From an uncultured Erysipelotrichaceae bacterium (GTDB lineage: Bacteria; Bacillota_I; Bacilli_A; RF39; UBA660): a stretch of DNA of 64,000 bases. Of the stretch, positions 45,371 to 64,000 are shown in pieces. The stretch covers positions 30,039 to 94,038 of the forward strand of contig CADBDE010000003.1 of assembly GCA_902793375.1 (NCBI GenBank). The letters are read 5' to 3'. Positions within the stretch are counted from its first letter, which is position 1; each line of letters begins with the position of its first letter. Position numbers and translations under genes: made by a program. The notes below the pieces were generated by a model. The model had not been told where the DNA came from. It saw only the letters and a list, made by a program, of their open reading frames with translations, and ran no database searches.

Positions 45371-45412
45371 CTTGCACCTCTTTTATACAAATTGATTATA
45401 ACATAAAAAGGA

Positions 45413-45889
45413 TTATTTTATAATTTTTAATAATTCTTTTTTTATAATTTCAATAATATATTTTTTATTATTTGCTCTATTATCTTTTATAGCAACAACT
45501 TCTTTAGTATAAAACTTATTATTATCTCTATCATAAATACTTATATATATTTTATTATTATTATTAACTATATTTCTTTTATCTATCCTGTTTATTTGAC
45601 CAGTTATTCCTACTCCATAATTTGAACTTGTAAAATCGCTTATATTTTTACTCATTTCATTAGCTGTTTCTTTTGAATAAACAGTATACTTATCAATTAC
45701 TTTTTTATTAACACCCATTTTTATTTTATATTCATTTGAGTACGTTACTGCACTATATTTAAAAACTTCACTAGATCCTTCTATATTTGTTATCTCGTTT
45801 GCAAGAAATCCTCCTGTACAAGACTCCATTGTAGATATTGTTTTATTTAGTTTAATTAGTCTTTTTACTATTTCTTTCATATAAACCAT
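45413..45889 (-). CDS. pncC: CinA-type nicotinamide-nucleotide amidohydrolase (PncC domain)
   Basis: TMESCTGGFLANEITNIEGSSEVFKYSAVTYSNEYK matches the CinA C-terminal domain signature (ESCTGG...GSS...VTYSN). Confidence 0.75.
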   Translation of the reverse strand: MVYMKEIVKRLIKLNKTISTMESCTGGFLANEITNIEGSSEVFKYSAVTYSNEYKIKMGVNKKVIDKYTVYSKETANEMSKNISDFTSSNYGVGITGQINRIDKRNIVNNNNKIYISIYDRDNNKFYTKEVVAIKDNRANNKKYIIEIIKKELLKIIK

Positions 45890-46415
45890 TCTTTTTAATA
45901 TAGTTTAATACTTTAGGATCTAAGAATTCATTTTTATTATTAACTCTTACACCAGTAGAAGATAAATCAAGACTTGGATAATTATCTAATACGATAAAAT
46001 TATCTTTATTATATTTCTCTAAATATTTATTTATATCTATACCATTTCTATTCATAATAATAATTTTATATTTTAATAGTTCTTGATAATTTTTCCATTT
46101 ATCAAAATTAATAATATTATCAGCACCCATAATTAAATATAAATCATGATTATATTTTTTTGATAATTCTTGCATTAATAAATAAGTATATGAAATATCA
46201 TTGTGTTCACAATCAATATGAATTTTATCAGTTTCAAAAAACTTTAACATATTAATTCGATGTTTAATATCTACTAAATCTTGTTTATTCCAATAATTTT
46301 GAGTTGCTACTATTAAAATTTGATCTACATAGTTATTATCTAATAAATAATTAACTAAATGGATATGTCCCTTATGAACTGGATTAAAGCTTCCTATAAA
46401 TACCCCTAATCTCAT
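45852..46415 (-). CDS. nadD: Nicotinate-nucleotide adenylyltransferase
   Basis: LGVFIGSFNPVHKGHIHLV is the (H/T)xGH nucleotidyltransferase motif of NadD. 187 aa. Confidence 0.85.
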   Translation of the reverse strand: MRLGVFIGSFNPVHKGHIHLVNYLLDNNYVDQILIVATQNYWNKQDLVDIKHRINMLKFFETDKIHIDCEHNDISYTYLLMQELSKKYNHDLYLIMGADNIINFDKWKNYQELLKYKIIIMNRNGIDINKYLEKYNKDNFIVLDNYPSLDLSSTGVRVNNKNEFLDPKVLNYIKKNGLYERNSKKTN

Positions 46416-46423
46416 ATTATCAC

Positions 46424-47188
46424 CTATTTCTTTGCCTTTACCTCACCATATTGATATGATTGCATTAATTCTAATTTAAATTTATTTAAAGTATGTTTTT
46501 TATCAATTAATGCTTTTACTTTAGGATTTTCACATTCACCAGTTCTTAAATAATTATCAAGTGTTGCATAAGTAAACCCTAAATTATCTTCATCAGTTTT
46601 ACCACATAATCCGTCAGATGGTGTTTTATAAACTAAATCGTATGGGAGTCCAAGTTCTAATCCTACTTTTCTTACTTCATCTACAGTTAAATTAGCAAGT
46701 GGTGCAACATCACCAGCTGAATCTCCATAGCGTGTAGAGTAACCTACCCAATCTTCTGATAAATTGCATGTGTTAATTACTCTTCCATTTAAAGATTGAC
46801 TAACAGCATATAAAGTTGTCATACGTGTTCTTGGTGGAATATTAATAATTGTCTGATTAGTAAGTTCTTTTATTCCAAGTTTTTTTAATTCATTTAAAGT
46901 TTCTTTTTTAACATCATCAACGATATCTTTAATATTAATAGTAATATTTTTAATATCTAAAAAATCACATACTCTTTTAGAATCAGCAATATCAGCTTGA
47001 TAACCATTTGGCATCAATACACCAATTACTCTATCTTTACCTATTGCCCTAGCACATAAAGCTGCTGTTACTGTAGAATCTTTACCACCTGAAATACCTA
47101 TAATGGCATTACAATCTTTTCCATTTTCATTAAACCAATTTCTTAACCATTCTAATAATTCTTTAGTTACTTTTTTTTCATCAAACAT
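46424..47188 (-). CDS. nadE: NH3-dependent NAD+ synthetase
   Basis: IGISGGKDSTVTAAL is the PP-loop SGGxDS motif. Length of 254 aa fits NadE. Confidence 0.85.
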   Translation of the reverse strand: MFDEKKVTKELLEWLRNWFNENGKDCNAIIGISGGKDSTVTAALCARAIGKDRVIGVLMPNGYQADIADSKRVCDFLDIKNITINIKDIVDDVKKETLNELKKLGIKELTNQTIINIPPRTRMTTLYAVSQSLNGRVINTCNLSEDWVGYSTRYGDSAGDVAPLANLTVDEVRKVGLELGLPYDLVYKTPSDGLCGKTDEDNLGFTYATLDNYLRTGECENPKVKALIDKKHTLNKFKLELMQSYQYGEVKAKK

Positions 47189-47190
47189 AT

Positions 47191-48018
47191 TTACATCTCC
47201 TTTTTACATTTTTCATAACCTTCAACAACAAAATAGTCATAACTTATAATTCCTTCAGTAAAATAATTAAAACTATTTATAGTTGTTTCAACTGTTTTCC
47301 ACAAAGTTACTTCAACTCCGTACACATCATATATTTCAGCTTTGTAAAAATTTCTTAAAAATTTAAAATTATTTTTTATATAATTACTAATCTCTTTATA
47401 AGCATCTATATCTTCTTTTAATTCATCATAACGATTATCAGTAGCACATCCTCTTAATTGGATATAACGTATATTTTTATTTGATGATAATTCTTTTATC
47501 ATATCTATTATTTCATTTTTATTGTATCTATTTACTACTATCCCAATACGATAATTCCTGTTTATAAATTTATTAATATCATTTAAATTTATAGTCTTTT
47601 TCACTTCTGTAATTTTAAGATTTGTTTCATCATTTAATGAGTGTACTGAATAACTTATTGTTCCATTTAAACTTTCTAATTCTTTTTTCTTTTCTATTGC
47701 TAATAAACCATTTGTTCTTATTCCAACGATAAAGTCTTTTGATTTTAAATATTCTATTAATTCTAAAAGATATTTGTATAATAATGGATCAGTGTTTTGC
47801 CCAGTTAAGTATATTTTTTTTATATTGTTTTTCTTACATATATCTAAATAATTATCAAAGTTTTTCCATTTTTTAAAATGAACATTTAAATAATTACTTT
47901 TTAAGCATTTAATATCCTTTCCTAAGCAAAAGAAACATTTATAATTACATGGTCCTTGCAAATTTATATTTGCAAATACTGGATTTTCTCTTTCTCTATT
48001 TTTATACATAAATATCAC
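47191..48018 (-). CDS. Radical SAM domain protein of unknown function, embedded in the NAD operon
   Basis: CNYKCFFC is a CxxxCxxC cluster at residues 25-32, followed by IYLTGQNTDPLL (SAM-binding glycine-rich-like). 275 aa. Confidence 0.65.
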   Translation of the reverse strand: MIFMYKNRERENPVFANINLQGPCNYKCFFCLGKDIKCLKSNYLNVHFKKWKNFDNYLDICKKNNIKKIYLTGQNTDPLLYKYLLELIEYLKSKDFIVGIRTNGLLAIEKKKELESLNGTISYSVHSLNDETNLKITEVKKTINLNDINKFINRNYRIGIVVNRYNKNEIIDMIKELSSNKNIRYIQLRGCATDNRYDELKEDIDAYKEISNYIKNNFKFLRNFYKAEIYDVYGVEVTLWKTVETTINSFNYFTEGIISYDYFVVEGYEKCKKEM

Positions 48019-48590
48019 TTCTTTTTTAAATAATTTTTACCTTTTTCAAGTGCATATATAGAATTTAATCCTCCTATATATCCTTTTTCTATGAGACAAT
48101 CGATTTCTTCAAAATCAACAAGTATATATTTTATAAATTCACCCTTATCTAGTTTTTGTTCTTTAACTTTTTTACAATGAAGTGCTACAAAGTAATGGTT
48201 ATATGCTTCTGAACAAGCTTGATCTTGATAAAAGCTTCCAAGCGATACAAACTCATCAGTTGTATATCCAGTCTCTTCTAATAGTTCTCTTTTTGCTGCA
48301 TCAAGAGCGGTTTCATTTTTTTCGATGTATCCAGCAGGAAGACCAACATCAACTGTTCTTTTAGTAAACACTCTTGGTTCTACTGCAAGTATTACTTTAT
48401 TATCTTCAGTAATAGGAAGAATAATAGATGCACTACCGCTTCCTCCATTTTTAAGTATTTTTTCTCTTTTTATTATTTCTCCATTATTAAGCTTACATTC
48501 ATAAGTTTTTGTTGTAAGAAAGTTACCACTTTCTGTTTCAATCATTTGAAGTGTCTTTAATTCATTAAAGTACTTTTCTATTTGGTTCAT
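48015..48590 (-). CDS. Nudix hydrolase (ADP-ribose pyrophosphatase-like)
   Basis: Nudix box GYIEKNETALDAAKRELLEETGY (Gx5Ex7REUxEExGU). Confidence 0.75.
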   Translation of the reverse strand: MNQIEKYFNELKTLQMIETESGNFLTTKTYECKLNNGEIIKREKILKNGGSGSASIILPITEDNKVILAVEPRVFTKRTVDVGLPAGYIEKNETALDAAKRELLEETGYTTDEFVSLGSFYQDQACSEAYNHYFVALHCKKVKEQKLDKGEFIKYILVDFEEIDCLIEKGYIGGLNSIYALEKGKNYLKKK

Positions 48591-50061
48591 TTCTTTTCAC
48601 CAACTTCTTGGCTTCCTCAATCATATCTTTTTTAAAGTTTACATAATTTTCTGTTCCATCTACATAATACTCATGAGGCATTACTGTTCTTTTAACCTCA
48701 GGATATAGTGTATCCATTTCTTTATTACAGTAATCTTTCTTTTCTAAAATACTTGGATCTTTATATACTAATTCTCCATTTATAAATATTGGTTTTTGTA
48801 ATTCAACTAAATCAAAGTTATCTATTGTAGTACTCTTTAAAAAGTCAGTTACACTTACTATTGTTAATTCTCTTTCATTTACTTTTTCATTATGTCTTGC
48901 TAGGACATCTGCTAATGCATAACCTGTTTTTTTATCGTATGCTCTATAAAGTTTCTTATAATCTGGATTTACTATTTTAATTGTGTCATTACTTAATTTA
49001 ATCTTTGGTACCCAAACACCTTTTTCTTTTCTCCAAGCTACTTCTTTATAAACACAACCCATTCTTCCTTCTGGTTTTGAAATGTTATCTCCTACTCCTA
49101 AGCTATCAAACTTAGCTCCTTGAGCAATTAATGTTTCTATTGTTTCAGCAGTAAGACCATTACTTAAACATATTTTAGCTTGTGGAAAACCTGCTTCATC
49201 TAACATTCTTCTTGCTTCTTTAGATAAGTATGCTAAGTCTCCTGAATCAATTCTAATTCCTATATGATTCGTATCAAGTCCATTTTCTTTCATATATTTA
49301 AATGTTTTAATAGCATTTGGAATACCACTTCTTAAAGTATCTATTGTGTCAACTAGTAATATACAGTTATTTGGATATGTTTTAGCATATTCAATAAATG
49401 ATTCTAATTCAGTTTCATAAGACTCTATCCATGAATGTGCTTGTGTTCCCATTGCTTTCATATTTAACATATTTGCAGCGATTATATTACTTGTTCCAAC
49501 ACATCCTGCCATAATACCATAGATTGATGCATCTATTGCAGCTTCGCAGCCATCAGCTCTTCTTGCACCAAACTCCATTACTCCAACATTTTTTGGTGTT
49601 GCTTCAATTATTCTTCTTGCACCAGTTGCATGTTCCATCGCACCATTTACTATTGATAATAAAGCTGTTTCTACAATTTGAGCTTCTATTAATGGAGCTT
49701 TTACTGTTACGATTGGCTCATTAGGAAACACTGGAGTTCCATCAGGTACTGCATATATGTCTCCAGTAAACTTAAATTTTTTTAAATAATTGATAAAATC
49801 TTCATCATAACCTTTTCTTCTAAAATAATCTAATTCTTGTTCACCAAACTTAAAGTTTTCGATAAATGGAATTACTTTATCAAGCCCTGCCATAATAGCA
49901 TATCCACCATTATTTGGAACTTTTCTAAAGAAAACATCAAATACTGCTTCTTCATCTTTCTTACCACTTTTTAAATAACCATTAGCCATTGTGAATTCAT
50001 ATTCATCATCCATTAATGTATAGTTTCTAGGAAGTCTTTCATATCCATTATAAATTTCCAT
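48565..50061 (-). CDS. pncB: Nicotinate phosphoribosyltransferase
   Basis: 498 aa; N-terminal LMDDEYEFTMANGYL and central MEFGARRA...GTQAHSW match NAPRTase family signatures. Confidence 0.85.
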   Translation of the reverse strand: MEIYNGYERLPRNYTLMDDEYEFTMANGYLKSGKKDEEAVFDVFFRKVPNNGGYAIMAGLDKVIPFIENFKFGEQELDYFRRKGYDEDFINYLKKFKFTGDIYAVPDGTPVFPNEPIVTVKAPLIEAQIVETALLSIVNGAMEHATGARRIIEATPKNVGVMEFGARRADGCEAAIDASIYGIMAGCVGTSNIIAANMLNMKAMGTQAHSWIESYETELESFIEYAKTYPNNCILLVDTIDTLRSGIPNAIKTFKYMKENGLDTNHIGIRIDSGDLAYLSKEARRMLDEAGFPQAKICLSNGLTAETIETLIAQGAKFDSLGVGDNISKPEGRMGCVYKEVAWRKEKGVWVPKIKLSNDTIKIVNPDYKKLYRAYDKKTGYALADVLARHNEKVNERELTIVSVTDFLKSTTIDNFDLVELQKPIFINGELVYKDPSILEKKDYCNKEMDTLYPEVKRTVMPHEYYVDGTENYVNFKKDMIEEAKKLVKRNEPNRKVL

Positions 50062-50062
50062 A

Positions 50063-50680
50063 TTATATACCTCTTTTCTTTTTAGCTAAAACTTTTATTC
50101 CATTAGCTTTCATTTCTTCTATTGCTCTTTTTGTTACTTCGTCAGCATCATGCCCTGGCGCATCATAAGTATCGATTCCATCTTCTGCTACATAGATATC
50201 AATATCTCTATCTAATTGATCAAATAGATTTCTTAATGTAATTCCTCCATTTTTAACACATACTTCTGATAGGCATCCCATAAGAAGTACTGTTTTAAGA
50301 TTTTTTAAACGATCTATAAAATCCATAAATCCTGGTGCAAATACGAAGTTTGTACTATTTTTAGTATAGTCATATGAACAATCTTTATAATCTTCTAGCT
50401 CATCAATTAACATTGGCTCTTCTGTATCTATAGAACAGTGTTCACCAAATGTTTTGTATTCAACTGAACCTTTATGATGCAAATCTCTTATAATTGCAAT
50501 TGCTTTGTTATCATCTTCTTTATAAGATTTTAAAAGTTCATGTTGTCTTCTTACTACCCTCATAATTGATGGTGCAGCAAGAGCTCCTTTCACTACGAAT
50601 CCTTTAACCATATCTATGTTTATGGCTAAGTGTTCAATTTTTAATTCTTGTTCTTGATTTGTTTTGTTATTAATTATCAT
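50063..50680 (-). CDS. pncA: Isochorismatase-family cysteine hydrolase, nicotinamidase-like
   Basis: Catalytic-triad context IDMVKGFV (Asp), K at about position 113, and LLMGCLSEVCV (Cys), as in PncA/isochorismatase hydrolases. First gene of the NAD operon. Confidence 0.65.
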   Translation of the reverse strand: MIINNKTNQEQELKIEHLAINIDMVKGFVVKGALAAPSIMRVVRRQHELLKSYKEDDNKAIAIIRDLHHKGSVEYKTFGEHCSIDTEEPMLIDELEDYKDCSYDYTKNSTNFVFAPGFMDFIDRLKNLKTVLLMGCLSEVCVKNGGITLRNLFDQLDRDIDIYVAEDGIDTYDAPGHDADEVTKRAIEEMKANGIKVLAKKKRGI

Positions 50681-52541: not shown

Positions 52542-53462
52542 CTATTTATTGGTGTCATATTTATCAACTATTTTTATCAAGTCATTTTTTAAATTTTCTA
52601 TTTTTATCTCATATTCTTTTTTCGACTTTACTTCTTTATGAATGCAATTATTTATAATTCTTATTGCCTCTTTTTGCTGATCAGTACCATTCTCCTCAAT
52701 ATATTTACAAAAGTTATCATTTAAAGAATTTAGTTTGTTATCCATTAAATCATATTTCTTAATAGTATCTTCATCTTTATTAAAAAAACTAATGAGATTA
52801 TTTGAATCAAAATATTCTTTCAAAATGTGTATAGATTCCTCATTTTCTCTTGAAAACATTTTATCTATTTCATTTGTTGATTCATTATATTTTTGCTCTA
52901 TATAATTAATTTTTTCGTTTATTTTATCAAAAGAATATTGAATTCTAGGCTTTGATAATATGATTGATTCTATTCTCTTTTTTGATATTTTATTATATAC
53001 TTCATAGAAAATATCATTAATAATTATTCGTAATTTTTCAATAATTTTGAAATCAATAAACATCTCAAATAACATAGTATCATCTTCATCATCTTTAAAA
53101 AAATGATTTACTTGGTCTCTTATATATTTAATTATTTTATAAAAATTTGATTTGTAATTTGGTTGATTATAGTATTTTTTATCAGTTGCATAAAACTCTT
53201 TGTTTATAAAAAGTTCAAAGTCATTAAAACGCTTACATTTTCCAAATAAATCTTTTGAATTTTTTATAGAATTTAACAGGTTATATATAGAAGAACAATA
53301 AACTTTATATACCCTGTTTCTTTCAGTCATAGTGTCAATAGATAATTCTTTGTCATCAAATTCAACATATATTTTAGATAGTGTATTAGATAATTCTACA
53401 AAATCTTGAATTCTTAAAATACGTTTTATTTGTTTATTTGAATATGTCATAATATACCTCAC
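52542..53462 (-). CDS. Hypothetical protein (306 aa), all-helical; possible Abi-like gene by context only
   Basis: ORF only. Located in the defense-type island. Confidence 0.3.
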   Translation of the reverse strand: MRYIMTYSNKQIKRILRIQDFVELSNTLSKIYVEFDDKELSIDTMTERNRVYKVYCSSIYNLLNSIKNSKDLFGKCKRFNDFELFINKEFYATDKKYYNQPNYKSNFYKIIKYIRDQVNHFFKDDEDDTMLFEMFIDFKIIEKLRIIINDIFYEVYNKISKKRIESIILSKPRIQYSFDKINEKINYIEQKYNESTNEIDKMFSRENEESIHILKEYFDSNNLISFFNKDEDTIKKYDLMDNKLNSLNDNFCKYIEENGTDQQKEAIRIINNCIHKEVKSKKEYEIKIENLKNDLIKIVDKYDTNK

Positions 53463-53580: not shown

Positions 53581-55476
53581 TCATAGTAATTCAAATTTTT
53601 CAGATAAAATGCTTAATAAATAATTTATAGCTTCTTTTTTTGTAACGCCATACTTATCTTTTTCCAATTTGTTAATACCATTTATTAATTCTTCAAATGA
53701 TTCTTTATCACTATCATAATACTCCTTCATATTTCCATTATTATATATTCTATCTATGCAATACTTAAAATAGTATATATTTTTATTATTACTTTTATCA
53801 ATATTACTTATTATTCTTTCTATATTCAATTTTGATAAAAAACCTTTCACATTAAAAAAGTAATTATAATTTTCACTTTCTCGAATATAATTATATAATT
53901 TTATTCCCCAATCATCATCAGTTAATATATTATCAAGAGAATCTTTATTAATATTGATATTTTTGTTTTTACTTGCTATTTTTAATCTTTCTATATTTTT
54001 ATTATAAGTATTCAATACCTTCTCATCTCTAATGATTTGCTCATAATTTATGTAATACTTTCTATCAAGATTTTTATCTATCTTATCTTCCATAATAGTT
54101 ATTATCTCATCAATAAGTTTAGTTTCAAAATTCAAATTCTGTAATGCTGATAATGTTACAATTATTTTTGGGAAAACACCACATGTATATAAATCATTGC
54201 TTAATTCATCTTTTAATGAATTTAATAGTTCATGCAATTTATCATCATCTAATTCCCAATAAATCTTTAATTTTGAAAATGCATTATCTGTATTTTCAAA
54301 GTCAGTTTCATTACTATTAATATATTCATCTATCGTACTCTCTATTTCTTTTATATCCACATCTTTATTTAGAATATAGTCATCAACAAACTTAAATGCT
54401 ACAAAATACATAAGCATGCTCTGATGTTCATCATCACCAAAACATGTTGTTTGATATTTTATTCCACCAGACCAATTCAACATTTTATTACCTGCTTTAA
54501 TATTAATAATATCAATAATAAAATTAATATATATTTTTGAATACATTTCTTTTTTTAATTTTAATTTAGCTTCATTTATTTTTAAAAACAGTTCATAAAA
54601 ATCTTCGAATATACATTTTATTGTTCTTAAATTGCTACAAGTATATAAGTTGGTTTCATTAATCAATATTTTTTTATGTTCCTTTAAAAACATAAAGTAA
54701 TCTTTATCATATTTATATATATCAATCAACCTATCTATTATTGTATCTAAATTAGGATTATATTTATAAGTTTTACCAATTAGTTTTTCTTTAATAATCC
54801 TGTAATTATAATTTATTTCATATAAACGATTCACTCTTTCTTTTACAGTAGAAATAGTCGGTGTAGTATTATCAATTTTATTACCAAAAAAATCTTTATT
54901 TTCAGGATCTTCATAATTAATGCTTGATTGCATCGTAGATATAAGTTTCAATTCATAGTTCTTATCAAAATCTATTTTACCAATTTCATTTTCATTTGCA
55001 ATTATAACTACTTTTATACCATTATGTTCAACGAATGAATTAATATATGCTAAGCACACATTAATATCTAAATTTACTCTTTCTAAATCATCAAATATTA
55101 ATAAATAATTTTTTAAATCACATTTTTCATTTAGTTTTCCAAACACTTCTGAATAATCTAAATCTAGTTTTAGTATTTTAGCTGCACTAAAACCAATTGA
55201 AAGCATTTTTGAATACTTTCCTGTGATTTGTAAATAAATATTGGCAGATATTATATCTAGAGAATCTACACCATATAATGATATGTATATAGGTTTCTTA
55301 AATTTTAAAGATGGTTTTTTCCCATTACTTTTAATATCATCATTTAATTTTGGAATCAATTCTTCTTTAACAAAATGTGTTTTCCCTGATCCCCAGTCTC
55401 CATCAATTAATACAGCATAATTTATTCTGTCATTTACTATATATTTTTTTATTTCTTCTATTAAATCTAAATTCAT
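53581..55476 (-). CDS. KAP-family P-loop NTPase
   Basis: AVLIDGDWGSGKTHFV is the KAP-type GxWGxGKT Walker A; LIFDDLER is the Walker B region. 631 aa. Confidence 0.7.
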   Translation of the reverse strand: MNLDLIEEIKKYIVNDRINYAVLIDGDWGSGKTHFVKEELIPKLNDDIKSNGKKPSLKFKKPIYISLYGVDSLDIISANIYLQITGKYSKMLSIGFSAAKILKLDLDYSEVFGKLNEKCDLKNYLLIFDDLERVNLDINVCLAYINSFVEHNGIKVVIIANENEIGKIDFDKNYELKLISTMQSSINYEDPENKDFFGNKIDNTTPTISTVKERVNRLYEINYNYRIIKEKLIGKTYKYNPNLDTIIDRLIDIYKYDKDYFMFLKEHKKILINETNLYTCSNLRTIKCIFEDFYELFLKINEAKLKLKKEMYSKIYINFIIDIINIKAGNKMLNWSGGIKYQTTCFGDDEHQSMLMYFVAFKFVDDYILNKDVDIKEIESTIDEYINSNETDFENTDNAFSKLKIYWELDDDKLHELLNSLKDELSNDLYTCGVFPKIIVTLSALQNLNFETKLIDEIITIMEDKIDKNLDRKYYINYEQIIRDEKVLNTYNKNIERLKIASKNKNININKDSLDNILTDDDWGIKLYNYIRESENYNYFFNVKGFLSKLNIERIISNIDKSNNKNIYYFKYCIDRIYNNGNMKEYYDSDKESFEELINGINKLEKDKYGVTKKEAINYLLSILSEKFELL

Positions 55477-55633
55477 TTTATCCTCCTAAAAAGAAAAATT
55501 CTATACTTTAATGTATAGAAATCTATAATTACATTATACTACTTTTTCCAATAAATGTCTGAAATAATTATAAATAAAAAAAGTATCATATTAATAATAA
55601 TTAGTTACATTATTCTTTTAATTTTTAAAATAA

Positions 55634-56638
55634 CTATTTTATTATTTCTTTCACAATTTCTTCTCCATGTGTTTTTACTTTAATTTCAGGAAGTATATTA
55701 GAATTTTTTAATTCATCAAGAGTCTCTGGTCTAATTTCAACTAATTTATCTAACTCTTCATTAGTAAACACATAATAAGCAGGAATCCCCATTTCACTAG
55801 ATCTATTCTTTCTTAATTCAATTAACCTATCCTTTAAATCATCTACAACTGTAACTGTATTGTTATTACAATATTTCTCTTTATAGTAATTATAGTAATC
55901 AACAACATCATTTGATGATATATCTAAATAATACTGTGCAATTGATTCCATATCTTTTTTATATTCAATTGGATCAAGTCTATCTCTATGATCAATTTCA
56001 TATTGAATTTGTCTTGTTAATGAATCAGCACGAAGAACTTTATACTTCATATCACTTGGAGCTTTACTAGTATTTAATATTGTATCTTGATTAGCAGCTA
56101 CTACCAATACTCTTCTATAATACTCATAATTACTTGATGCAAACATTTTTTTAATTGTAGAAGTATTCTTTTCCCATATCTTTCTCAAAACTTCTCTTTG
56201 AGCTTCTACTTGCGTTAAAGGAGAATTCATTCCTTTTTTAATTATCTTTCCATTAATATTTAGTTCTCTTATAAAATCTCCTTTTTCATTAACAGTAATA
56301 TTTCCAACAAGATTTTTACATTCAACATAATAAATAAATACAGGAGTAATAATAACATAATCTATTTGTGCAGTTAAATCTTCATATTTAACTTTTATAT
56401 CTCTTAAAATATACATACCAATATTAGATTTCTTTAATTGATATGCTATTTCATTTTCTCCATCTAATCCCTTTTTAATAATATATAATTCACTTAATAA
56501 TTCTTCATTATTAGGATATTCTTCATTTAATCTTTTTAAAGCATCATATCTATCTTGTAAATCACTATTCTCTTTATAAAAAACTGTATCTTTAAATCTA
56601 AATGCTTCTATACTACTTAATAAACCCATTTTTACCAC
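55634..56638 (-). CDS. NERD-domain nuclease-related protein with C-terminal HRDC/HTH-like tail
   Basis: GENEIAYQLKKS...LRDIKV...AQIDYVIITPVFIYYVECKNLVGNITV fits the NERD core (QIDhhhh...G.hhhE.KN). Confidence 0.65.
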   Translation of the reverse strand: MVKMGLLSSIEAFRFKDTVFYKENSDLQDRYDALKRLNEEYPNNEELLSELYIIKKGLDGENEIAYQLKKSNIGMYILRDIKVKYEDLTAQIDYVIITPVFIYYVECKNLVGNITVNEKGDFIRELNINGKIIKKGMNSPLTQVEAQREVLRKIWEKNTSTIKKMFASSNYEYYRRVLVVAANQDTILNTSKAPSDMKYKVLRADSLTRQIQYEIDHRDRLDPIEYKKDMESIAQYYLDISSNDVVDYYNYYKEKYCNNNTVTVVDDLKDRLIELRKNRSSEMGIPAYYVFTNEELDKLVEIRPETLDELKNSNILPEIKVKTHGEEIVKEIIK

Positions 56639-56837
56639 CCAACTGAATTATAGCATATTTATTTGTAATTAACCTAGTTATTTTCTCTATCCATGAATAT
56701 TAAATAATTCTAGATTGTATCACAAGCATTTAAAAAAAAAGCAAAATGTTTATCAGTTATACATATATTTTTCAGAAAATAGTATATAAGTTCATAACTT
56801 AAATAAATAAAATATAAAAAAAGCTAGACTTAAAAAT

Positions 56838-57635
56838 CTAATTTTTTTCCTTCTCGCTATTCTTATTGCTAAGTAAACTTCCTATTCTTATCTTTCTTTT
56901 TTCTAATTGTTTCTTATATATTTCATCCTCTAAAATAATTTCAATAGCACTTTTTAGTAATTTAAATTGTTCATTGCATTCTTCTTCAGACAAGTTATGA
57001 ACTCCATCACTTAGTAGCGAGTATAAAACATTATATCCAGTACTTTTTAGCATTTCATTTAAAAGATTTTCCTTAACAAGTTGTTTTATAATATCTTTTG
57101 TTTTCATGCCGGTAAAATCTGTTTTGCTTTTATTTTTTGCTTTTTCTATTAAGGATTCAAAAACTCTTCTCAAATAAACAACTGACGCAATGTTCAAATT
57201 ATTTTCTTTAGATTTAATTGATAGAAGATAATATTCCTTCTCAGATTCATCCAACTCTTTGATGATATTATCATTTATTTCTTTGCTAAAATACATTGAG
57301 GATGGATATTGTCCAAATTTTACTAAGTTTCCCTTTCCTAAAGTTTCAAATGATACTTTAAAACTATGATTATACTCACATGAAAAATCATAAATTAATA
57401 ATTCATTATTATGTACGATTAGCGCTTCATTCACGCTTTTACTTAAATAATAACCAGCTGTAGTTACATCTGAGCATTTGAATATTCTTTTTTCTTTGCA
57501 TCTTGGACAATACAATTCAACTTTGATAGACTTACTATAAGTTGGAAAAAGAAACTCAAAATCTTCTGATTTAACATTTATTTCTGATCCAATTGCTTTT
57601 AATAATAAATCTTCATTTATTATTTTATCATTCAT
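56838..57635 (-). CDS. Hypothetical protein with N-terminal C4 zinc-ribbon and C-terminal helical domain (possibly DUF4145-like)
   Basis: CPRCKEKRIFKCS...(20 aa)...CEYNH zinc ribbon. C-terminal LLNEMLKSTGYNVLYSLLSDGVHNL is reminiscent of the DUF4145 R..GN..AH helix. Last gene of the MTase-REase-MazG-NTPase operon (20-nt gap). Confidence 0.3.
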   Translation of the reverse strand: MNDKIINEDLLLKAIGSEINVKSEDFEFLFPTYSKSIKVELYCPRCKEKRIFKCSDVTTAGYYLSKSVNEALIVHNNELLIYDFSCEYNHSFKVSFETLGKGNLVKFGQYPSSMYFSKEINDNIIKELDESEKEYYLLSIKSKENNLNIASVVYLRRVFESLIEKAKNKSKTDFTGMKTKDIIKQLVKENLLNEMLKSTGYNVLYSLLSDGVHNLSEEECNEQFKLLKSAIEIILEDEIYKKQLEKRKIRIGSLLSNKNSEKEKN

Positions 57636-57655
57636 ATTTTTATCACTCCTAATTT

Positions 57656-59389
57656 TTAATAACTATTATTATTATTTATATATTTACTTAAATATTTTCT
57701 TAGCCCTTCATCACACACATAAATATATGTCCCAAGCATACCCCTAAGCATCATTGTTCTGTAGATATTCAATACATATTCTAACAATTCTTCATCTGTT
57801 GTATTGGCTTTACCTTTAGCATCAAAATAATTTTTTCTATCAGTAATAAATTCTTTTGTTTTTAAATCATACCTTAACTCATTTCCTATTATTAATCCTA
57901 CATAATTTAAATCAAATCCTTGAGTTGTATGAATACTTCCAATTTCATTTACTGAATTTGGAGAATTAATCCAATCTGTCGCTTTCGAATTCCATATATA
58001 TTTGAATCCATCAATTTCTATATCAAATATTCCATTTTCAAAATTATTCTTTATTTCTTTTTTGTCCCAATACAAATGTAGTCTTTTACCTTTACTATTC
58101 CATTTCCATGCATATCCAGCAACATTTCTACACAAACCAAATTCAGAATCTTTTTTTATAATATCTTGAACCATTTCATTAACATCATCAAACATTTTTA
58201 AATCATATTTATTGAATTTTATCTTCTTTATTGGTGGTTTATCACTAAAAATCGATTTAACATAATCAACATATTCTTCTCCACCTGCAATACATCTCAA
58301 TTGAGCAGTCAATTTATATGTTTTATAGTTTTTTCTTTGCATTAATTCATAAAATTTTTCTTTTCTTATATCTGTTGGTTTTATCGATTGATCTTCATCA
58401 TAGAAAAATATTTGATATTTACTTTTTTTCAATACCCAATCTAGTTCTGTTCCTTCTTTTCCTAAACCCATTTTTCTATTATTCTCATCAAAAGTACAAT
58501 ATTGTGTTAAATTTTTTCTTCTTCTAAGCCTATGAGCTTCATCTACAATTAATACATCATATATTTCATTTGATTTACCAATATCATGTGGACTTAATAC
58601 CATTCTGGAGTTTAACCCTTTAATGTGTTTAAAAACATTCCTTAAAGTAGTTCTTAAATTATCCATTGGTATAACTAAACCTATTTTTAAGTCATCGATA
58701 GCATCATTAATTTTTAATATATCAGAAAGGTTTTGTTCAACTTGATCTTCTTCTATTTCAATTGTTTTTTTATCTTTTGCCTGCATCAATAATTTAAGAA
58801 TATAAATACCTAAAATAGTTTTTCCAGTACCAGCTCCACCCTCAACTACAAATGTGGCCGGTTCTTTTGTGTTAACATAATCTGCTAAATCTGATAATAT
58901 ACTATTAACAATCATATATTGATCAATAGTTAAGGATTTGTATGGAGAATATTTAAACAAATCTGTATTTTCAATCATTCTCAAATCATTCTTAACAAGG
59001 CCTTTTGTTTTTAATTGAATCCATATTTCTCGAAATTTATCTTCATACATTTTTCTTTGATAATAATCATGGTTTTGTAATCCACCATTCCCATTTTGCA
59101 ATAAATATTTATTATCAGCAGACATATATTTTATTAAAAAAGACTCAAGATCTAAGATAGATGATTTATTAAATGTATCATCTCCTATAATGCTTATCTT
59201 ATCTAAATTTCTTCTTACTTCATTCGCCCAATGCTGATTTGATCTAATACTAGCATCAGTAGTTTCTCCAATATAAGCTTCTTCCTTATTGTTAATTATA
59301 TAAACTACCGGCCAATTACTTCCATATTTTTCATTTTTTAGAACATTAGAAGTACCAGCATTAAACATCTTAGTAATAATCTCTGCCAT
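57656..59389 (-). CDS. GIY-YIG nuclease-like N-terminal domain fused to a DUF2075/Schlafen-like SF1-type P-loop NTPase (Nhi-like architecture)
   Basis: N-terminus VVYIINNKEEAYIGETTDASIRSNQH resembles GIY-YIG (Y...YIG...R...QH). Core FVVEGGAGTGKTILG (Walker A) and VLIVDEAHRLRRR (Walker B, DEAH-like). 577 aa. 11-nt gap from the MazG gene. Confidence 0.6.
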   Translation of the reverse strand: MAEIITKMFNAGTSNVLKNEKYGSNWPVVYIINNKEEAYIGETTDASIRSNQHWANEVRRNLDKISIIGDDTFNKSSILDLESFLIKYMSADNKYLLQNGNGGLQNHDYYQRKMYEDKFREIWIQLKTKGLVKNDLRMIENTDLFKYSPYKSLTIDQYMIVNSILSDLADYVNTKEPATFVVEGGAGTGKTILGIYILKLLMQAKDKKTIEIEEDQVEQNLSDILKINDAIDDLKIGLVIPMDNLRTTLRNVFKHIKGLNSRMVLSPHDIGKSNEIYDVLIVDEAHRLRRRKNLTQYCTFDENNRKMGLGKEGTELDWVLKKSKYQIFFYDEDQSIKPTDIRKEKFYELMQRKNYKTYKLTAQLRCIAGGEEYVDYVKSIFSDKPPIKKIKFNKYDLKMFDDVNEMVQDIIKKDSEFGLCRNVAGYAWKWNSKGKRLHLYWDKKEIKNNFENGIFDIEIDGFKYIWNSKATDWINSPNSVNEIGSIHTTQGFDLNYVGLIIGNELRYDLKTKEFITDRKNYFDAKGKANTTDEELLEYVLNIYRTMMLRGMLGTYIYVCDEGLRKYLSKYINNNNSY

Positions 59390-59400
59390 AGTACCACTTC

Positions 59401-59715
59401 CTACAATTTATTATATTTAGTGCTAACACCTTTAGCTTTTTCTACAGGATATTTTCTAGCGGTTTTTCCCATTTTATCTAAAACAATTTGTTTAGGATCA
59501 ACACCAAGCTTGTCTGCCATTAATAAACAATAATTAATAACATCTGCTAATTCTTCTTTTACTTCATCTAAATTATATTCACTATTCCATTGAAAACATT
59601 CTAAAAGTTCTCCAGCTTCAATACATATACTTTTAGCTAAATTCTCTGGAGAATGGAATTGATCCCAATCTCTTTCTCTTGTAAATTCAACGACTTTATT
59701 TGATAAATCTTTCAT
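59401..59715 (-). CDS. MazG-like nucleotide pyrophosphohydrolase (all-alpha NTP-PPase)
   Basis: RDWDQFHSPENLAKSICIEAGELLECFQW and EELADVINYCLLMADKLGVD match the two EExxE/D helices of MazG-family NTP pyrophosphatases. 104 aa. Confidence 0.75.
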   Translation of the reverse strand: MKDLSNKVVEFTRERDWDQFHSPENLAKSICIEAGELLECFQWNSEYNLDEVKEELADVINYCLLMADKLGVDPKQIVLDKMGKTARKYPVEKAKGVSTKYNKL

Positions 59716-59724
59716 ATATATCTC

Positions 59725-60813
59725 CTATGCAGTAACTCTATAACTTACTGGTGTCATTTTCATATTTATTATTTCTTTATATGTATAAGTTTTATAATTA
59801 GGAAATTCCGAATTAACATTAGTAACCATGTACAAAATATAATTATCTTTATGTTCATTCATAAATTTCAATTCTCCTGATGATAAGTTAAATACTTCTT
59901 TATTACTTTGAGTAGCTTTTACTTCAATATATTTCTTTACACCATCTTCAATATATTCAATATCATATGGCGAAAATTTATAAGTTTTACTTGTATGAAA
60001 TAAATCATTATCTTCTAGCAACTTAGATTTTAGTAACTCATATACAAATTCTTCACCCTTTAAACCATTACTACTTCTTGTTCTATTTATTTCTTCAATT
60101 TCAATATCTTCTTTACCGGTTACCAAATTTCGTTTACATGTAACTACAACATTATTTTCATAAGAAAAGCTATCATCTATTTTTAATTTTTGTCCTACAC
60201 CTTTACCTTCTTTAAAAACGCTTGTTAATAAAATTCCTTTGGGTCCAACTAATTTTATTAAAAAATTTAATGTACGGGTTTCAGAATAGTAAACAAACCC
60301 ATTAACTACAAAAGCATAATCACCATTTTCTTCCATTATTTTGTCGAGTATTAATCTATTATTAATATTAAAACCATCTTTTCTATAATCAAAAGAAATT
60401 GGATAATGAATCATTAATCTTCCTAAATGAGTATTACTATTATGTGACGCGTTAATTATATTGGCTGTCTCAGAAGTTTCTTCTTTTATATACATACAAT
60501 ATGAGGCATCAACATCTAATTTTTCACCATTAACTAATATATTATCAAAAACAAATATATCTGTAACATTTGTTTTATTTTTTTCATTTTTTCTGCAAGC
60601 ATCTATTAAATCATCAGGAATTTTATTATCATCCACCCTACAATTCATATCACGTAATTGTAATATATCGTTTCTCCATTTATTTGGATTTTTACTTTGA
60701 TTAAGTTCTGTTTCCACACTAGCTGTGTGACCTTTTTTATAGTTATTATACATCCCATATCTAAGTGATGTTTCGGATATTTTAAATTTTAATTCTTTCA
60801 TAATAATCTCCAA
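59725..60813 (-). CDS. Putative Type II restriction endonuclease, PD-(D/E)xK fold, cognate to the adjacent C5-MTase
   Basis: C-terminal SPYDIEYIED...KYIEVKAT gives a P-Y-D ... E-V-K arrangement, the PD-(D/E)xK catalytic motif. Start codon abuts the MTase stop. Confidence 0.5.
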   Translation of the reverse strand: MEIIMKELKFKISETSLRYGMYNNYKKGHTASVETELNQSKNPNKWRNDILQLRDMNCRVDDNKIPDDLIDACRKNEKNKTNVTDIFVFDNILVNGEKLDVDASYCMYIKEETSETANIINASHNSNTHLGRLMIHYPISFDYRKDGFNINNRLILDKIMEENGDYAFVVNGFVYYSETRTLNFLIKLVGPKGILLTSVFKEGKGVGQKLKIDDSFSYENNVVVTCKRNLVTGKEDIEIEEINRTRSSNGLKGEEFVYELLKSKLLEDNDLFHTSKTYKFSPYDIEYIEDGVKKYIEVKATQSNKEVFNLSSGELKFMNEHKDNYILYMVTNVNSEFPNYKTYTYKEIINMKMTPVSYRVTA

Positions 60814-60814
60814 A

Positions 60815-61918
60815 CTAGCCTAACCAATCCTCATCTATTTCTTTTAATTGATTAAATATATGATCCAAAAGAATATAGACTAAATTTACATCCCAACCAT
60901 TTCCTGCTCTTTTTGATAATTGAGTATAAGACTGATTTCCAAATACTATATCAACTTTTCTACCAACACCATCTAGTCCTTCAAGACCCATAAGTCTAAA
61001 TTGCTCTGTAACAGACATTTTTCTAACAACTTCTTTATTTCCATGTGGCTCTATAACCCTTAAAGCATTATGTTCTGGCATTGTAATGGTAATTGAATAA
61101 CCATCTGTTTTTATTTTTTTATTATATACATCAAAACATAATGCTTTCTTTACTTTAAAACTATCTACATTATGTTTTTCTTTAAGATGTTTAATTTGTT
61201 TATCAGACAAATACATTTCTCTTGGAACATATCCATCCGGATCTAGAAAATCTGCCATAAGCTTTCCATTGTGAATTTCATTAGGAACCATTGAAAAATC
61301 TACTGGTAGCCCTCCTAATCTTGCAAACATCCATACTCTTTCTCTGTTTTGAGGCACACCATAATCTTTACTATTTAATAATGCAACTCTTAGAGGTGAA
61401 TCTTTACCACCACTTGTATATCCCATATCTATAAGCATATTATCCATTTGTTTTCTTGTAGACTCAAACTTTTTTGAAAAAAATCCTTTAACATTTTCTA
61501 ATAAAATATATTTTGGTTTTTTTGCTTCACATATTCTCATAATATGTTGAAATAAAGTTCCCCTACCATATGGATCATCTACACCTTTTTGCATTCCAGC
61601 AGTTGAAAAAGGTTGGCAAGGAAATCCTCCCATAAAAATATCAAAATCTGGGACATCATCTGGATTAAGCTTTGTAATATCACCAAAATTCTTAATATTT
61701 TTTCCATCTTTATTTTTGTGATTTAAATCATATAATTCACAAGCATATTTATCTATTTCAGAATAACCAATTATTTCAAAATCAAAATTTGGATACTTTC
61801 CTTTTAGTCGATCTAAAGCAAAATGCCCCCCGCCATAACCTGCAAATCCTTCAAATACTTTTAATTTTTTCCTTTTTTTGTTTGCCATGACAAACCTCCT
61901 AAATTGTTTTACATACAA
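60815..61918 (-). CDS. DNA (cytosine-5)-methyltransferase
   Basis: Motif I VFEGFAGYGGG, motif IV GGFPCQPFSTAG, motif VI ENVKGF, motif VIII QNRERVW. Confidence 0.9.
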   Translation of the reverse strand: MYVKQFRRFVMANKKRKKLKVFEGFAGYGGGHFALDRLKGKYPNFDFEIIGYSEIDKYACELYDLNHKNKDGKNIKNFGDITKLNPDDVPDFDIFMGGFPCQPFSTAGMQKGVDDPYGRGTLFQHIMRICEAKKPKYILLENVKGFFSKKFESTRKQMDNMLIDMGYTSGGKDSPLRVALLNSKDYGVPQNRERVWMFARLGGLPVDFSMVPNEIHNGKLMADFLDPDGYVPREMYLSDKQIKHLKEKHNVDSFKVKKALCFDVYNKKIKTDGYSITITMPEHNALRVIEPHGNKEVVRKMSVTEQFRLMGLEGLDGVGRKVDIVFGNQSYTQLSKRAGNGWDVNLVYILLDHIFNQLKEIDEDWLG

Positions 61919-61971
61919 TTATATCATATAATTATTTAAAGTCTTTAATTTTTTAATGATAGATTATATAA

Positions 61972-62994
61972 TTAAATACTAAAGTTACTAAAGAAATCAT
62001 CTTTCACATTTGCACGACGAGATCTATTACGCAACTTCATAAGAGCTTTTGATTCAATTCGGAGTATTGCTTTAGGTGTTACACCAAACTCTTCAGCGAT
62101 TTCTTTAAGCGTTCTTGGTTTCCCATCTCCAATTCCAAACCTTAGTCTCAATACTTTTTCTTCTCTATCAGTTAAAGTTAGTAAAATAGCATCCAATCTT
62201 TCATCATCGACACCCACTAAATCATATAATTTATTAAACGTTAATAATTCTTCTTGTTCTTGTTGCTCTTTTTCTACCGCTTCTTCAGATATATTCTCAC
62301 CTAATTCATTTAAAGCAGTTGAAGCATATTTTACAAACTTTATTGTTTTTCTTGTTTTATTTTTATATTCTTCACATAATATTTTTTCATTATTTAAATA
62401 AGTATCATCACGTGTAACAAACAAAACATCATATTTTGAATTACATAATAACGATTCCCATATATATTCATCACAAATAGTTAAACTTTTATATCCTCCC
62501 TTATCACTTCTTGGTACTCCACCTAAATTGTTTCTCTTTATTGCTTCATTATAAGCAAAATCATTGTCTTTGATTATTATTGTGTGACTATTTTCAATGA
62601 TCTTATTAAACATACTAAGCACAATATCTTTGTTTTCATCATTTATCATTTTTTCTATTTCATTTTTTAATGGAATATAACTTTCTTTTATTTTAGAAAC
62701 TAATTTAGCATTATCCTTATTTAGTTCAGTTATTTTTTCTGTAAAAATCCCAAGCGGTTCTAAATTAAACATGTTATTTGTGATTTGTTTCTCTTTTGAT
62801 TCAACTTTATCAAATAATCCTTTTAACTCTGTAACCCTATTTCTTTTGAATTCTCTTATAACTTGTTCGGTAATTATCAAATTATTTGATGATGATAGTT
62901 TATCTAGTATTTCTTTATTTTCTTCTTTATATCGATAAAAATCCAAATATTTATTAGTATCAATAAAAATTTTAAGCATATTTGCCACCACCAA
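61972..62994 (-). CDS. Fusion protein: N-terminal PIN-like nuclease domain plus C-terminal sigma-70 region-4 helix-turn-helix
   Basis: N-terminus KIFIDTNKYLDFY (PIN Asp-1 motif). Later LFVTRDDTY (PIN distal acidic motif). C-terminus EKVLRLRFGIGDGKPRTLKEIAEEFGVTPKAILRIESKALMKLR is a textbook sigma-70 region 4 (RpoD/SigA-like 4.2 HTH). Confidence 0.5.
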   Translation of the reverse strand: MVVANMLKIFIDTNKYLDFYRYKEENKEILDKLSSSNNLIITEQVIREFKRNRVTELKGLFDKVESKEKQITNNMFNLEPLGIFTEKITELNKDNAKLVSKIKESYIPLKNEIEKMINDENKDIVLSMFNKIIENSHTIIIKDNDFAYNEAIKRNNLGGVPRSDKGGYKSLTICDEYIWESLLCNSKYDVLFVTRDDTYLNNEKILCEEYKNKTRKTIKFVKYASTALNELGENISEEAVEKEQQEQEELLTFNKLYDLVGVDDERLDAILLTLTDREEKVLRLRFGIGDGKPRTLKEIAEEFGVTPKAILRIESKALMKLRNRSRRANVKDDFFSNFSI

Positions 62995-63143
62995 TTACAT
63001 TATATCATAAAGAAAAGTCATATTTCTATTCAATTATTGCATACTTATATTTTTTTATAATAATATCTACCTTTTGACAAAAATAATGATAATAACTATT
63101 TTATCATTAGATTTGTCAGAACAAAAAAAGAACATTTCTGTTC

Positions 63144-64000
63144 TTATCTTTTAAGTTTTAAACTATATTCTTCTACTACTTCTTCGTTAGTTTTATTAAA
63201 TTGTTTAACAAATACTTTTTCTCCCATAAATAATCTTCTATAATTTGATTCATTTACTTTAAGTCCTTTTGCTTCTAAGAAACTATTTCTTGCTTTAGAT
63301 AAAGTAAGACTTTGCATTAAATGTTTTGGTTCTCTAACAAGAATACTATGAAGTCCTAATGAACTATAAAAAGAAAGCTTTTCTTTAATAGATTCACTAC
63401 TTAAAGTAACAATACCTGGATACCTTTTTATTATATCTTTAACATTATCATCTTGATAATCACATTCTTTTATAGTTTTTATTTTTTCTTTAATCTTATC
63501 AGGACTCATACTAAACAACGTTCTTTGATGAGAATAGAGTCTTATTGCTTCTTCTTTAGTAAATCCAAGTTCACTAAGTAAATTTATTCTTTCAATAATA
63601 GATTCTTTTGTATATCCAAGTATTGCTGGATTAATTCTTAATATTGAATATATTGCTTCTCTTTTAAATCCAATATCTATTAGATCATTTATTTTATTAT
63701 ATAATGTATCATTGGTAAAAAGTAAAAGAGTTGGTGTTCTTTTAAATACTTTTAAAGCATCTTCTTCACTCATTCCAAAAGATTTATAAAGATCTAATCT
63801 ATTTTTAATATAATTAGATGAACGAGATAATAAAGCAGGAGATTTCTTAACCATTCCTATTACTTCTTCTTTAGTGTATCCTAAGGATAAAAAATAATTA
63901 AATGATTCATCTACTTTATTTTTAAATGCAAGAACATTAGGAGCAAGAATAATCATCTTTTTAATATCTTCTTTTGAAAATCCTAAAGATAATAAATGTT
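63144..64000 (-). CDS. mTERF-like repeat protein (partial; the reading frame continues beyond the right window edge, so the true N-terminus is outside the window)
   Basis: At least six tandem repeats of about 30-35 aa of the type LSLGYTKEEVIGMVKKSPALLSRS / LYKSFGMSEEDALKVFKRTPTLLLFT / LIDIGFKREAIYSILRINPAILGYT / LSELGFTKEEAIRLYSHQRTLFSMS. These match the mTERF motif (L..LGfs.e.i.k.l...P.lL..s). The frame upstream of the annotated Met (63956) stays open to 64000 and continues with HLLSLGFSKEDIKKMIIL. Confidence 0.55.
   Translation of the reverse strand, partial: HLLSLGFSKEDIKKMIILAPNVLAFKNKVDESFNYFLSLGYTKEEVIGMVKKSPALLSRSSNYIKNRLDLYKSFGMSEEDALKVFKRTPTLLLFTNDTLYNKINDLIDIGFKREAIYSILRINPAILGYTKESIIERINLLSELGFTKEEAIRLYSHQRTLFSMSPDKIKEKIKTIKECDYQDDNVKDIIKRYPGIVTLSSESIKEKLSFYSSLGLHSILVREPKHLMQSLTLSKARNSFLEAKGLKVNESNYRRLFMGEKVFVKQFNKTNEEVVEEYSLKLKR

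Follow-up and report, generated by a model that had tools for sequence, protein, structure and literature searches.

The window analysed here is a 64,000-nucleotide (nt) stretch of the forward strand of contig CADBDE010000003.1 (positions 30,039 to 94,038; GenBank assembly GCA_902793375.1) from an uncultured Erysipelotrichaceae bacterium, and it carries five co-oriented, tightly packed open reading frames (ORFs) between positions 56838 and 61918 (Table 1). These encode a C5 cytosine DNA methyltransferase (M), a restriction endonuclease (R), a small MazG-like pyrophosphatase, a nuclease-helicase that joins a GIY-YIG domain to a DUF2075 helicase, and a protein that we call ORF5. A preliminary description of the locus had placed all five ORFs correctly and had left open whether they form a composite or a new five-gene system. 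Our analysis bears out the first of these terms, in that the 5.1-kb block is very probably a head-to-tail stack of three independent modules, namely a restriction-modification (RM) pair, a MazG-helicase pair and the solitary ORF5. The mechanical ORF list gave TTG starts for M and R, which are probably not the true starts, since Shine-Dalgarno (SD) sequences and gene calls on identical metagenome contigs place both at ATG codons. Because of this correction the gap between M and R is 13 nt rather than the 1 nt originally given, and the gaps of 9, 11 and 20 nt between the following genes stand.

Table 1. Features of the window discussed in the text, in window coordinates
Feature	Coordinates	Strand	Remarks
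C5 cytosine DNA methyltransferase (M), 357 amino acids (aa)	60815..61888	(-)	start ATG 61888, SD AGGAGG
Restriction endonuclease (R), 358 aa	59725..60801	(-)	start ATG 60801, SD GGAG
MazG-like all-alpha NTP pyrophosphatase, 104 aa	59401..59715	(-)	PF12643; DCTPP1 homologue
GIY-YIG + DUF2075/Schlafen-group-3 superfamily 1 (SF1)-type helicase, 577 aa	57656..59389	(-)	PF09848; second gene of the pair
ORF5, zinc-ribbon-like + HEPN-like, 265 aa	56838..57635	(-)	no Pfam match
Candidate extended -10 element TGaTATAAT	61918..61926	(-)	in the 83-nt spacer upstream of M; by-eye reading, weak
PIN_8 + sigma-70 region 4 fusion	61972-62994	(-)	C-terminus matches MzaA of the MZA system
mTERF-domain protein	63144-64000	(-)	PF02536, E 1e-30; cut by the window end, 374 aa in locus L001
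NERD nuclease-HRDC fusion	55634-56638	(-)	profile search
KAP-family P-loop NTPase	53581-55476	(-)	PADLOC candidate PDC-S49, full length, E 2.5e-50
306-aa protein (p306)	52542-53462	(-)	homologue at L004:9769-10680, directly after the DUF2075 gene
NAD salvage/regulation cluster	44543-50680	(-)	borders the defence island

The third and fourth genes of the block belong together. We aligned 41 diverse full-length relatives of the 577-aa nuclease-helicase (34-51% identity), retrieved with it 80 loci from GTDB species representatives, with contigs from one genome per species, and searched the window proteins against the six-frame ORFs of these loci, which span Saccharibacteria, Bacteroidota, Proteobacteria (Gammaproteobacteria), Actinobacteria, Firmicutes and one archaeon. 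The helicase gene has a MazG-like ORF next to it at 77 of the 80 loci (74 upstream on the same strand, two downstream and one divergent), and one of the three loci without it lies at a contig end. In simple gene calls the modal spacing of the two genes is a 4-nt overlap, and MazG is predicted to be translationally coupled to the helicase; no fusion of the two proteins occurs among 150 representatives. A 32%-identical pair is carried by megaplasmids of Bacillus thuringiensis and B. mycoides, where the annotation goes no further than 'nucleotide pyrophosphohydrolase' and 'DUF2075 domain-containing protein'. No third conserved gene was found near the pair, the largest neighbour cluster reaching 8 of 79 loci at varying positions. 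The MazG and GIY-YIG/DUF2075 genes are a self-contained, deeply conserved two-gene unit across bacteria, and to this extent the idea that the last three genes of the block co-occur with each other and with RM genes proved correct. The rest of that idea did not survive: R, ORF5 and p306 were each found at none of the 80 pair loci, and a C5 methylase was found at four, each time distant and on the opposite strand.

These counts already largely refute a single integrated system of four or five genes, in which the methylase would mark self and R, MazG, the nuclease-helicase and ORF5 would act as a methylation-discriminating multi-effector machine, and they lend no support to the suggestion of a new system that uses the methylase for self-marking. 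The tight spacing of the genes, the lack of an internal terminator and the report of DUF3883 nucleases beside DUF2075 NTPases (Lutz et al. 2019) speak for such a machine. R is nevertheless missing also from all five close-relative contexts outside the lineage of the window, and we consider the integrated reading very improbable indeed.

The first two genes have the features of the conventional Type II RM pair that the preliminary description had recognised. M matches PF00145 (E 6e-57), TIGR00675 and the PADLOC model MTase_II (E 4e-65), its translation displays the motifs FxGxG, PCQ, ENV and QNRER, corresponding to the motifs I, IV, VI and VIII claimed for it, and its closest solved structure is M.HhaI (E 3e-31). 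The C-terminus of R is a NOV_C/DUF3883 nuclease domain (E 5e-16) of the PD-(D/E)xK fold with a catalytic centre, D284/E297/K299, that is invariant among homologues. For the conserved N-terminal domain, which spans about 240 aa, neither PDB nor Pfam offers a relative, and a sequence search of PDB with R returned nothing significant. The R family is small (168 clusters). Each homologue at 42-50% identity follows a C5 methylase of 355-363 aa at a distance of 10-19 nt, in some cases with a helix-turn-helix (HTH) C-protein ahead of the methylase, and none stands beside a MazG or DUF2075 gene, which further argues against the integrated system. Adjacency of M and R was kept in three of three distant contexts as well as in loci L004 and L133. 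Judged by these features, M and R are an autonomous Type II C5 RM pair (module 1, 61888-59725), in which the methylase would mark host sites and R would recognise the same site through its N-terminal domain and cut unmethylated DNA with its PD-(D/E)xK centre. Another assignment of R, to the modification-dependent enzymes of the DUF3427-DUF3883 type (Lutz et al. 2019), was considered and rejected, both because the N-terminus matches no reader domain and because R is strictly linked to a methylase.

ORF5, the last gene of the block, has only 27 detectable homologues. Those with context lie between hsdM and hsdS of a Type I system, beside an SNF2/N6-methylase system and on a Flagellimonas chromosome, and ORF5 is a rare, independent defence-island gene. 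The protein combines an N-terminal beta/zinc-ribbon-like domain (C43, C46, C86) with a C-terminal HEPN-like helical domain that has the four-helix HEPN fold, and it matches no Pfam family. The zinc ribbon first proposed for it could be recognised, and the DUF4145-like C-terminal helix found little support, since PF13643 gives no match for ORF5 and matches only 5 of 23 relatives, all below threshold (best E 0.026). A HEPN-like fold is the better description. Unlike HEPN abortive-infection and toxin proteins, ORF5 lacks the canonical Rx4-6H motif: there is no arginine 4-6 residues before the invariant H213, and the invariant R156/R157 and H213 lie on separate helices. As module 3 (57635-56838) it would probably act on its own as an RNase-type abortive-infection effector.

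The small enzyme of the MazG-helicase pair, described beforehand as a 104-aa all-alpha pyrophosphohydrolase of the MazG type, fully deserves that description. It matches PF12643 (E 6e-22, 78 bits) and, in PDB, mouse and human dCTP pyrophosphatase 1 (DCTPP1, also RS21-C6; 2a3q/6sqw, E 1e-17). Its four metal ligands E33, E36, E55 and D58 (ExxE ... ExxD), which correspond to E63, E66, E95 and D98 of the mouse enzyme, are 99-100% conserved among 85 orthologues. A further 15 residues are identical to DCTPP1 (F11, R15, W17, Q19, F20, H21, E39, W43, K81, K88, Y89, P90, G96, K100 and Y101), and ligands and identical residues together are 95-100% conserved in the same set. Because of this conservation, the enzyme is very probably active and is predicted to have a DCTPP1-like pocket. 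DCTPP1 itself prefers dCTP that is substituted at position 5.

Seen from the side of MazG, the association is looser. Among metagenome contigs that carry this MazG subfamily, a DUF2075 gene stands alongside at about 48 of 73 testable loci. It lies directly on either side of MazG, or downstream with one small membrane-protein gene in between, and its product has at several loci an N-terminus other than GIY-YIG; at one locus a PLD-ResIII helicase takes the place of DUF2075. There is thus an asymmetric dependency, since MazG adjoins 77 of 80 helicases but DUF2075 adjoins only about 48 of 73 MazG genes: the nuclease-helicase almost always has a pyrophosphatase, and the pyrophosphatase can stand alone. 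We also observed that members of the subfamily with up to 88% identity to the MazG of the window are paired with other helicase-nuclease architectures. At L123-L125, L134, L136 and L137, MazG is followed by a membrane protein of about 260-279 aa and then by a non-GIY-YIG DUF2075 protein, and the further forms of the partner, seen at L176:4314-5387 and L144:439-2574, are a PLD-ResIII protein and a DUF2075 protein of 712 aa whose N-terminal domain has no family assignment.

This asymmetry is one of the points that favour a toxin-antitoxin-like pair, in which the nuclease-helicase would be toxic and the small MazG protein would restrain it, or sense for it, independently of catalysis. The position of the small gene ahead of its partner and the 4-nt overlaps, which suggest stoichiometric co-translation, point in the same direction. 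The conservation of metal ligands and substrate-pocket residues over 85 orthologues, on the other hand, argues that enzymatic activity is required, and the toxin-antitoxin-like reading strikes us as quite improbable.

The second protein of the pair belongs to the SLFN-g3/DUF2075 group (PF09848, E 8.5e-62). Its GIY-YIG match is below threshold (18.8 bits against a Pfam cut-off of 22.6), but those of its relatives pass with 25-30 bits, and the GIY-YIG residues Y30, Y39, G41, E42, R49, H53, E82 and N99 are invariant or nearly so in the 41 aligned sequences, as is the Walker A motif (G184-K190) and, in Walker B, D283 and E284, all of them invariant. The Nhi-like architecture of a GIY-YIG nuclease joined to a DUF2075 NTPase, as initially proposed, is well founded, and a sequence search of PDB with the 577-aa protein returned nothing significant. 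The copy in the window is a short form. In 37 of 79 family members the protein extends to about 730 aa through a C-terminal Peptidase_S24 domain of the LexA/UmuD type (loci L022, L031, L032, L035 and 33 others; proteins P0148, P0152, P0157, P0160, P0162, P0186, P0192 and P0293), in which an AAG site aligns with the cleavage site of LexA and the GxSM serine and the lysine are invariant. Other extensions are a C-terminal HTH_3 (P0246) and an N-terminal HSDR_N domain (P0204). The S24 domain suggests that the long forms undergo self-cleavage triggered by RecA and single-stranded DNA (ssDNA).

Such a switch, carried by about half of the family with its cleavage site and Ser-Lys dyad intact, is among the observations that would fit a role outside antiviral defence. 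The pair could serve DNA-damage and nucleotide-pool house-cleaning, sanitising oxidised or modified dCTP and processing damaged DNA or stalled forks under an SOS-like switch, and the closest characterised relative of MazG, DCTPP1, is itself a house-cleaning enzyme. We nonetheless regard this as a rather doubtful, minority reading. The distribution of the pair is patchy across phyla, close relatives may have or lack it, megaplasmids carry it, and RM, abortive-infection (Abi) and CRISPR genes abound in its variable flanks. In the 80 loci, the 149 immediate neighbours are heterogeneous; a qualitative listing of those related to defence includes RloB/AbiL, DUF3427 type IV enzymes, Type I and III restriction subunits and Cas9, together with SoFic, AriA, PbeA and MADS components. 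In addition, no LexA box of the Cheo type (GAAC-N4-GTTC) or the E. coli type (CTGT-N8-ACAG) was found within 330 nt upstream of MazG in 63 loci, which is a limited test, as many phyla use other boxes. Viral copies of the pair are few: the GenBank phage set has four matches and IMG/VR has 12, most of them located at the end of a contig.

For the pair (module 2, 59715-57656) we favour an Nhi-like attack on invader DNA that is aided by hydrolysis of dCTP or modified dCTP, a reading that by analogy with Nhi we hold to have about an even chance of being correct. By this account the helicase would engage replication intermediates of the invader and the GIY-YIG domain would cut them, and MazG would hydrolyse dCTP or 5-modified dCTP, so that invader DNA synthesis would be starved or corrupted. 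In the long-form relatives the LexA-like domain would probably gate this activity through RecA/ssDNA-stimulated self-cleavage, a gate that the copy in the window lacks.

Several observations weigh against three independent modules or against an antiviral role of the second. The arrangement M-R-MazG-DUF2075 recurs in loci L004-L009, a second island context beside an integrase/Mob gene, with identities to the M, R, MazG and helicase of the window of 91, 94, 89 and 79%, and in these blocks, as in the window, R and MazG are only 9-13 nt apart; this persistence in two island contexts may reflect a lineage-specific functional link among the four genes, and it is also a point for the integrated system. 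Our promoter and terminator scan (consensus scan of 55400-63200, DNA of 25% GC) was uninformative on transcript boundaries. The substrate specificity that we assign to MazG comes from homology. In about one-third of metagenome loci, MazG of this subfamily occurs without a DUF2075 partner near housekeeping genes, such as those for glycosyl hydrolase family 88 (PF07470), alcohol dehydrogenase and a Crp-family regulator, as would suit a house-cleaning enzyme. Finally, a candidate system named 'Pyrophosphatase', which pairs a 98-aa pyrophosphatase with a 643-aa DUF2075 protein, was included in a previous screen, the sole experiment on a candidate related to the pair, in which SG192 (Bacillus firmus LK28) is marked 'x', meaning that no defence was observed, and SG193 (B. 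thuringiensis Lr3/2) is entered as 'Cloning failed' (Millman et al. 2022, Table S2). The first result counts towards house-cleaning and the second towards a toxin-antitoxin-like pair. Since SG192 gave no defence and SG193 could not be cloned, the pair is a known but unvalidated defence candidate.

The recurrence of the four-gene block is best set against loci in which its parts are separate. The MazG of L096, a locus without RM genes, is as similar to that of the window (89%) as is the MazG of the RM-bearing L004, and in L133 the RM pair is followed by an intrinsic terminator and then by MazG with its own TGnTATAAT element. Both findings run counter to the integrated system, and because of them the RM pair and the MazG pair can be read as separable neighbours that were brought into contact in this lineage. 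Consistent with this, loci L095, L096 and L098-L100 (75-78% identity) carry the MazG-helicase pair alone behind a spacer of 100-480 nt that is unrelated to the 3' end of R in the window. The fifth position also changes hands: in L004-L009 it is held by a 44%-identical homologue of p306 instead of by ORF5, to which p306 is unrelated, again contrary to an integrated system. As the p306 homologue directly follows the helicase gene there, ORF5, NERD-HRDC and the KAP NTPase (56838-53581) look like an insertion of about 4 kb into an older M-R-MazG-helicase-p306 arrangement. Within L133 (2-1963) the methylase is 91% identical to that of the window and the adjacent nuclease only 50%; it looks as if the R allele had been replaced while M stayed almost the same.

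Transcription of the block as one unit is plausible. Within it, the scan found no terminator-like hairpin on the coding strand, and a weak AT-rich hairpin with a T run lies 3' of ORF5, before a 199-nt spacer. Promoter-like sites were not enriched over the scanned region, with 52 found against 61 expected from shuffles. The TGaTATAAT element upstream of the methylase gene is a possible promoter for the whole block, and we infer that the block is probably read through from a promoter in that position. Tight packing and probable co-transcription are, however, most likely an accident of island assembly.

A more specific antiviral version of the pair deserves separate mention, although we think it unlikely. 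It would make the pair a genuine and very widespread anti-phage system, in which MazG destroys the 5-methyl- or 5-hydroxymethyl-dCTP pool of cytosine-replacing phages and so forces them to make unmodified, cleavable DNA or stalls their replication while the GIY-YIG helicase degrades it, the long forms being triggered by RecA-stimulated self-cleavage. The phage panel on which SG192 was assayed is not known to have included cytosine-modified phages; if it lacked them, this version would also explain the negative result.

The block sits inside a larger defence island. Directly upstream of the methylase gene, the gene for the PIN_8-sigma-70 region 4 protein may have a regulatory role or serve defence in its own right. 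Beyond it lies the mTERF-domain gene. The mTERF family is mainly organellar in eukaryotes, and we note its member here within a low-GC bacterial defence island. Downstream of the block follow the NERD-HRDC fusion, the KAP NTPase and two proteins without family assignment; the first two are further single-gene defence candidates of the island. The adjoining NAD cluster encodes an NrtR-type Nudix regulator, CinA/PncC, NadE, a radical SAM protein, a Nudix protein, NAPRTase and a nicotinamidase-like isochorismatase, and this NrtR-controlled cluster probably marks the edge of the island and the return to ordinary chromosome.

Taken together, these results dissolve the apparent five-gene system and make the locus a clean example of how tight packing in a defence island need not mean functional coupling. 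What remains is a two-gene unit that occurs in several phyla and hundreds of species, in which the genes are almost always linked and both enzymes look catalytically intact. It joins a bacterial counterpart of a human nucleotide-pool sanitiser to a helicase domain common to Schlafen-type antiviral proteins, and one earlier study flagged it as a candidate for defence, with defence never demonstrated. Should the pair be antiviral, nucleotide-depletion immunity would gain a dCTP-directed arm next to those of dCTP deaminase and dGTPase, and a damage sensor of the LexA type would be connected with an effector nuclease. Should it serve repair or house-cleaning, it would be a passenger commonly found in defence islands, and prediction pipelines should no longer score it as defence.

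Compared with known systems, the RM pair is close to Type II C5 systems of the M.HhaI class, with which it shares adjacent, co-oriented M and R genes, the full set of C5 methylase motifs and an R with PD...ExK; M-R adjacency holds down to 42% identity, and a C-protein, a frequent member of such systems, sometimes lies upstream. It differs in the N-terminal domain of R, which is without known relative, and in its upstream neighbour, since in the window the PIN_8-sigma-70 region 4 gene, 83 nt from the methylase, occupies the position where relatives have the HTH C-protein. MazG shares with DCTPP1 (RS21-C6/XTP3-TPA) the all-alpha MazG fold family, the four metal ligands and identical R-D-W-x-Q-F-H, F-Q-W and K-Y-P motifs. 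The bacterial protein is shorter, at about 104 aa, lacks the N- and C-terminal extensions of the mammalian enzyme and is genetically tied to a nuclease-helicase.

None of R, MazG, the helicase and ORF5 falls into a named NCBIfam family, and DUF2075 together with MazG was found in no main text of the literature searched, the sole mention being the supplementary table that lists the 'Pyrophosphatase' candidate. That candidate shares with the pair a small MazG-type pyrophosphatase followed by DUF2075 in the same gene order, and the SG192 pyrophosphatase is 46% identical to the MazG of the window (E 3e-28). The SG192 DUF2075 protein differs, in that only its helicase core aligns (27%) and its N-terminus resembles PD-(D/E)xK instead of GIY-YIG. 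In the same study a gene family of the MazG superfamily (COG4997, all-alpha NTP-PPase) appears among those scored for defence association and seems to be marked as not previously known defence (Millman et al. 2022, Table S1). As far as we found, the GIY-YIG form, the breadth of the family, its DCTPP1-grade conservation and the LexA-like fusions are undescribed.

The nearest established defence proteins are Nhi of Staphylococcus epidermidis (SERP2475), a PD-(D/E)xK nuclease joined to DUF2075 (Bari et al. 2022), and the verified Nhi-like DUF2075 nuclease-helicases (Millman et al. 2022), and PF09848 is in use as an Abi-type family marker. The helicase of the window gives no match to the PADLOC Nhi model at E<0.01, and its relatives match the Nhi model (about 40 bits) and the AbiO model weakly and partially, over the helicase core. 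Nhi and Nhi-like proteins share with the family of the window an N-terminal nuclease fused to a DUF2075 SF1-type helicase and a location in defence islands. They are distinguished by their nuclease, which is PD-(D/E)xK where that of the window is GIY-YIG, and by the S24 domain that about half of the window's family carries. Nhi and Nhi-like proteins are also single-protein systems, whereas the regular presence of an adjacent MazG gene speaks against autonomous action of the nuclease-helicase described here.

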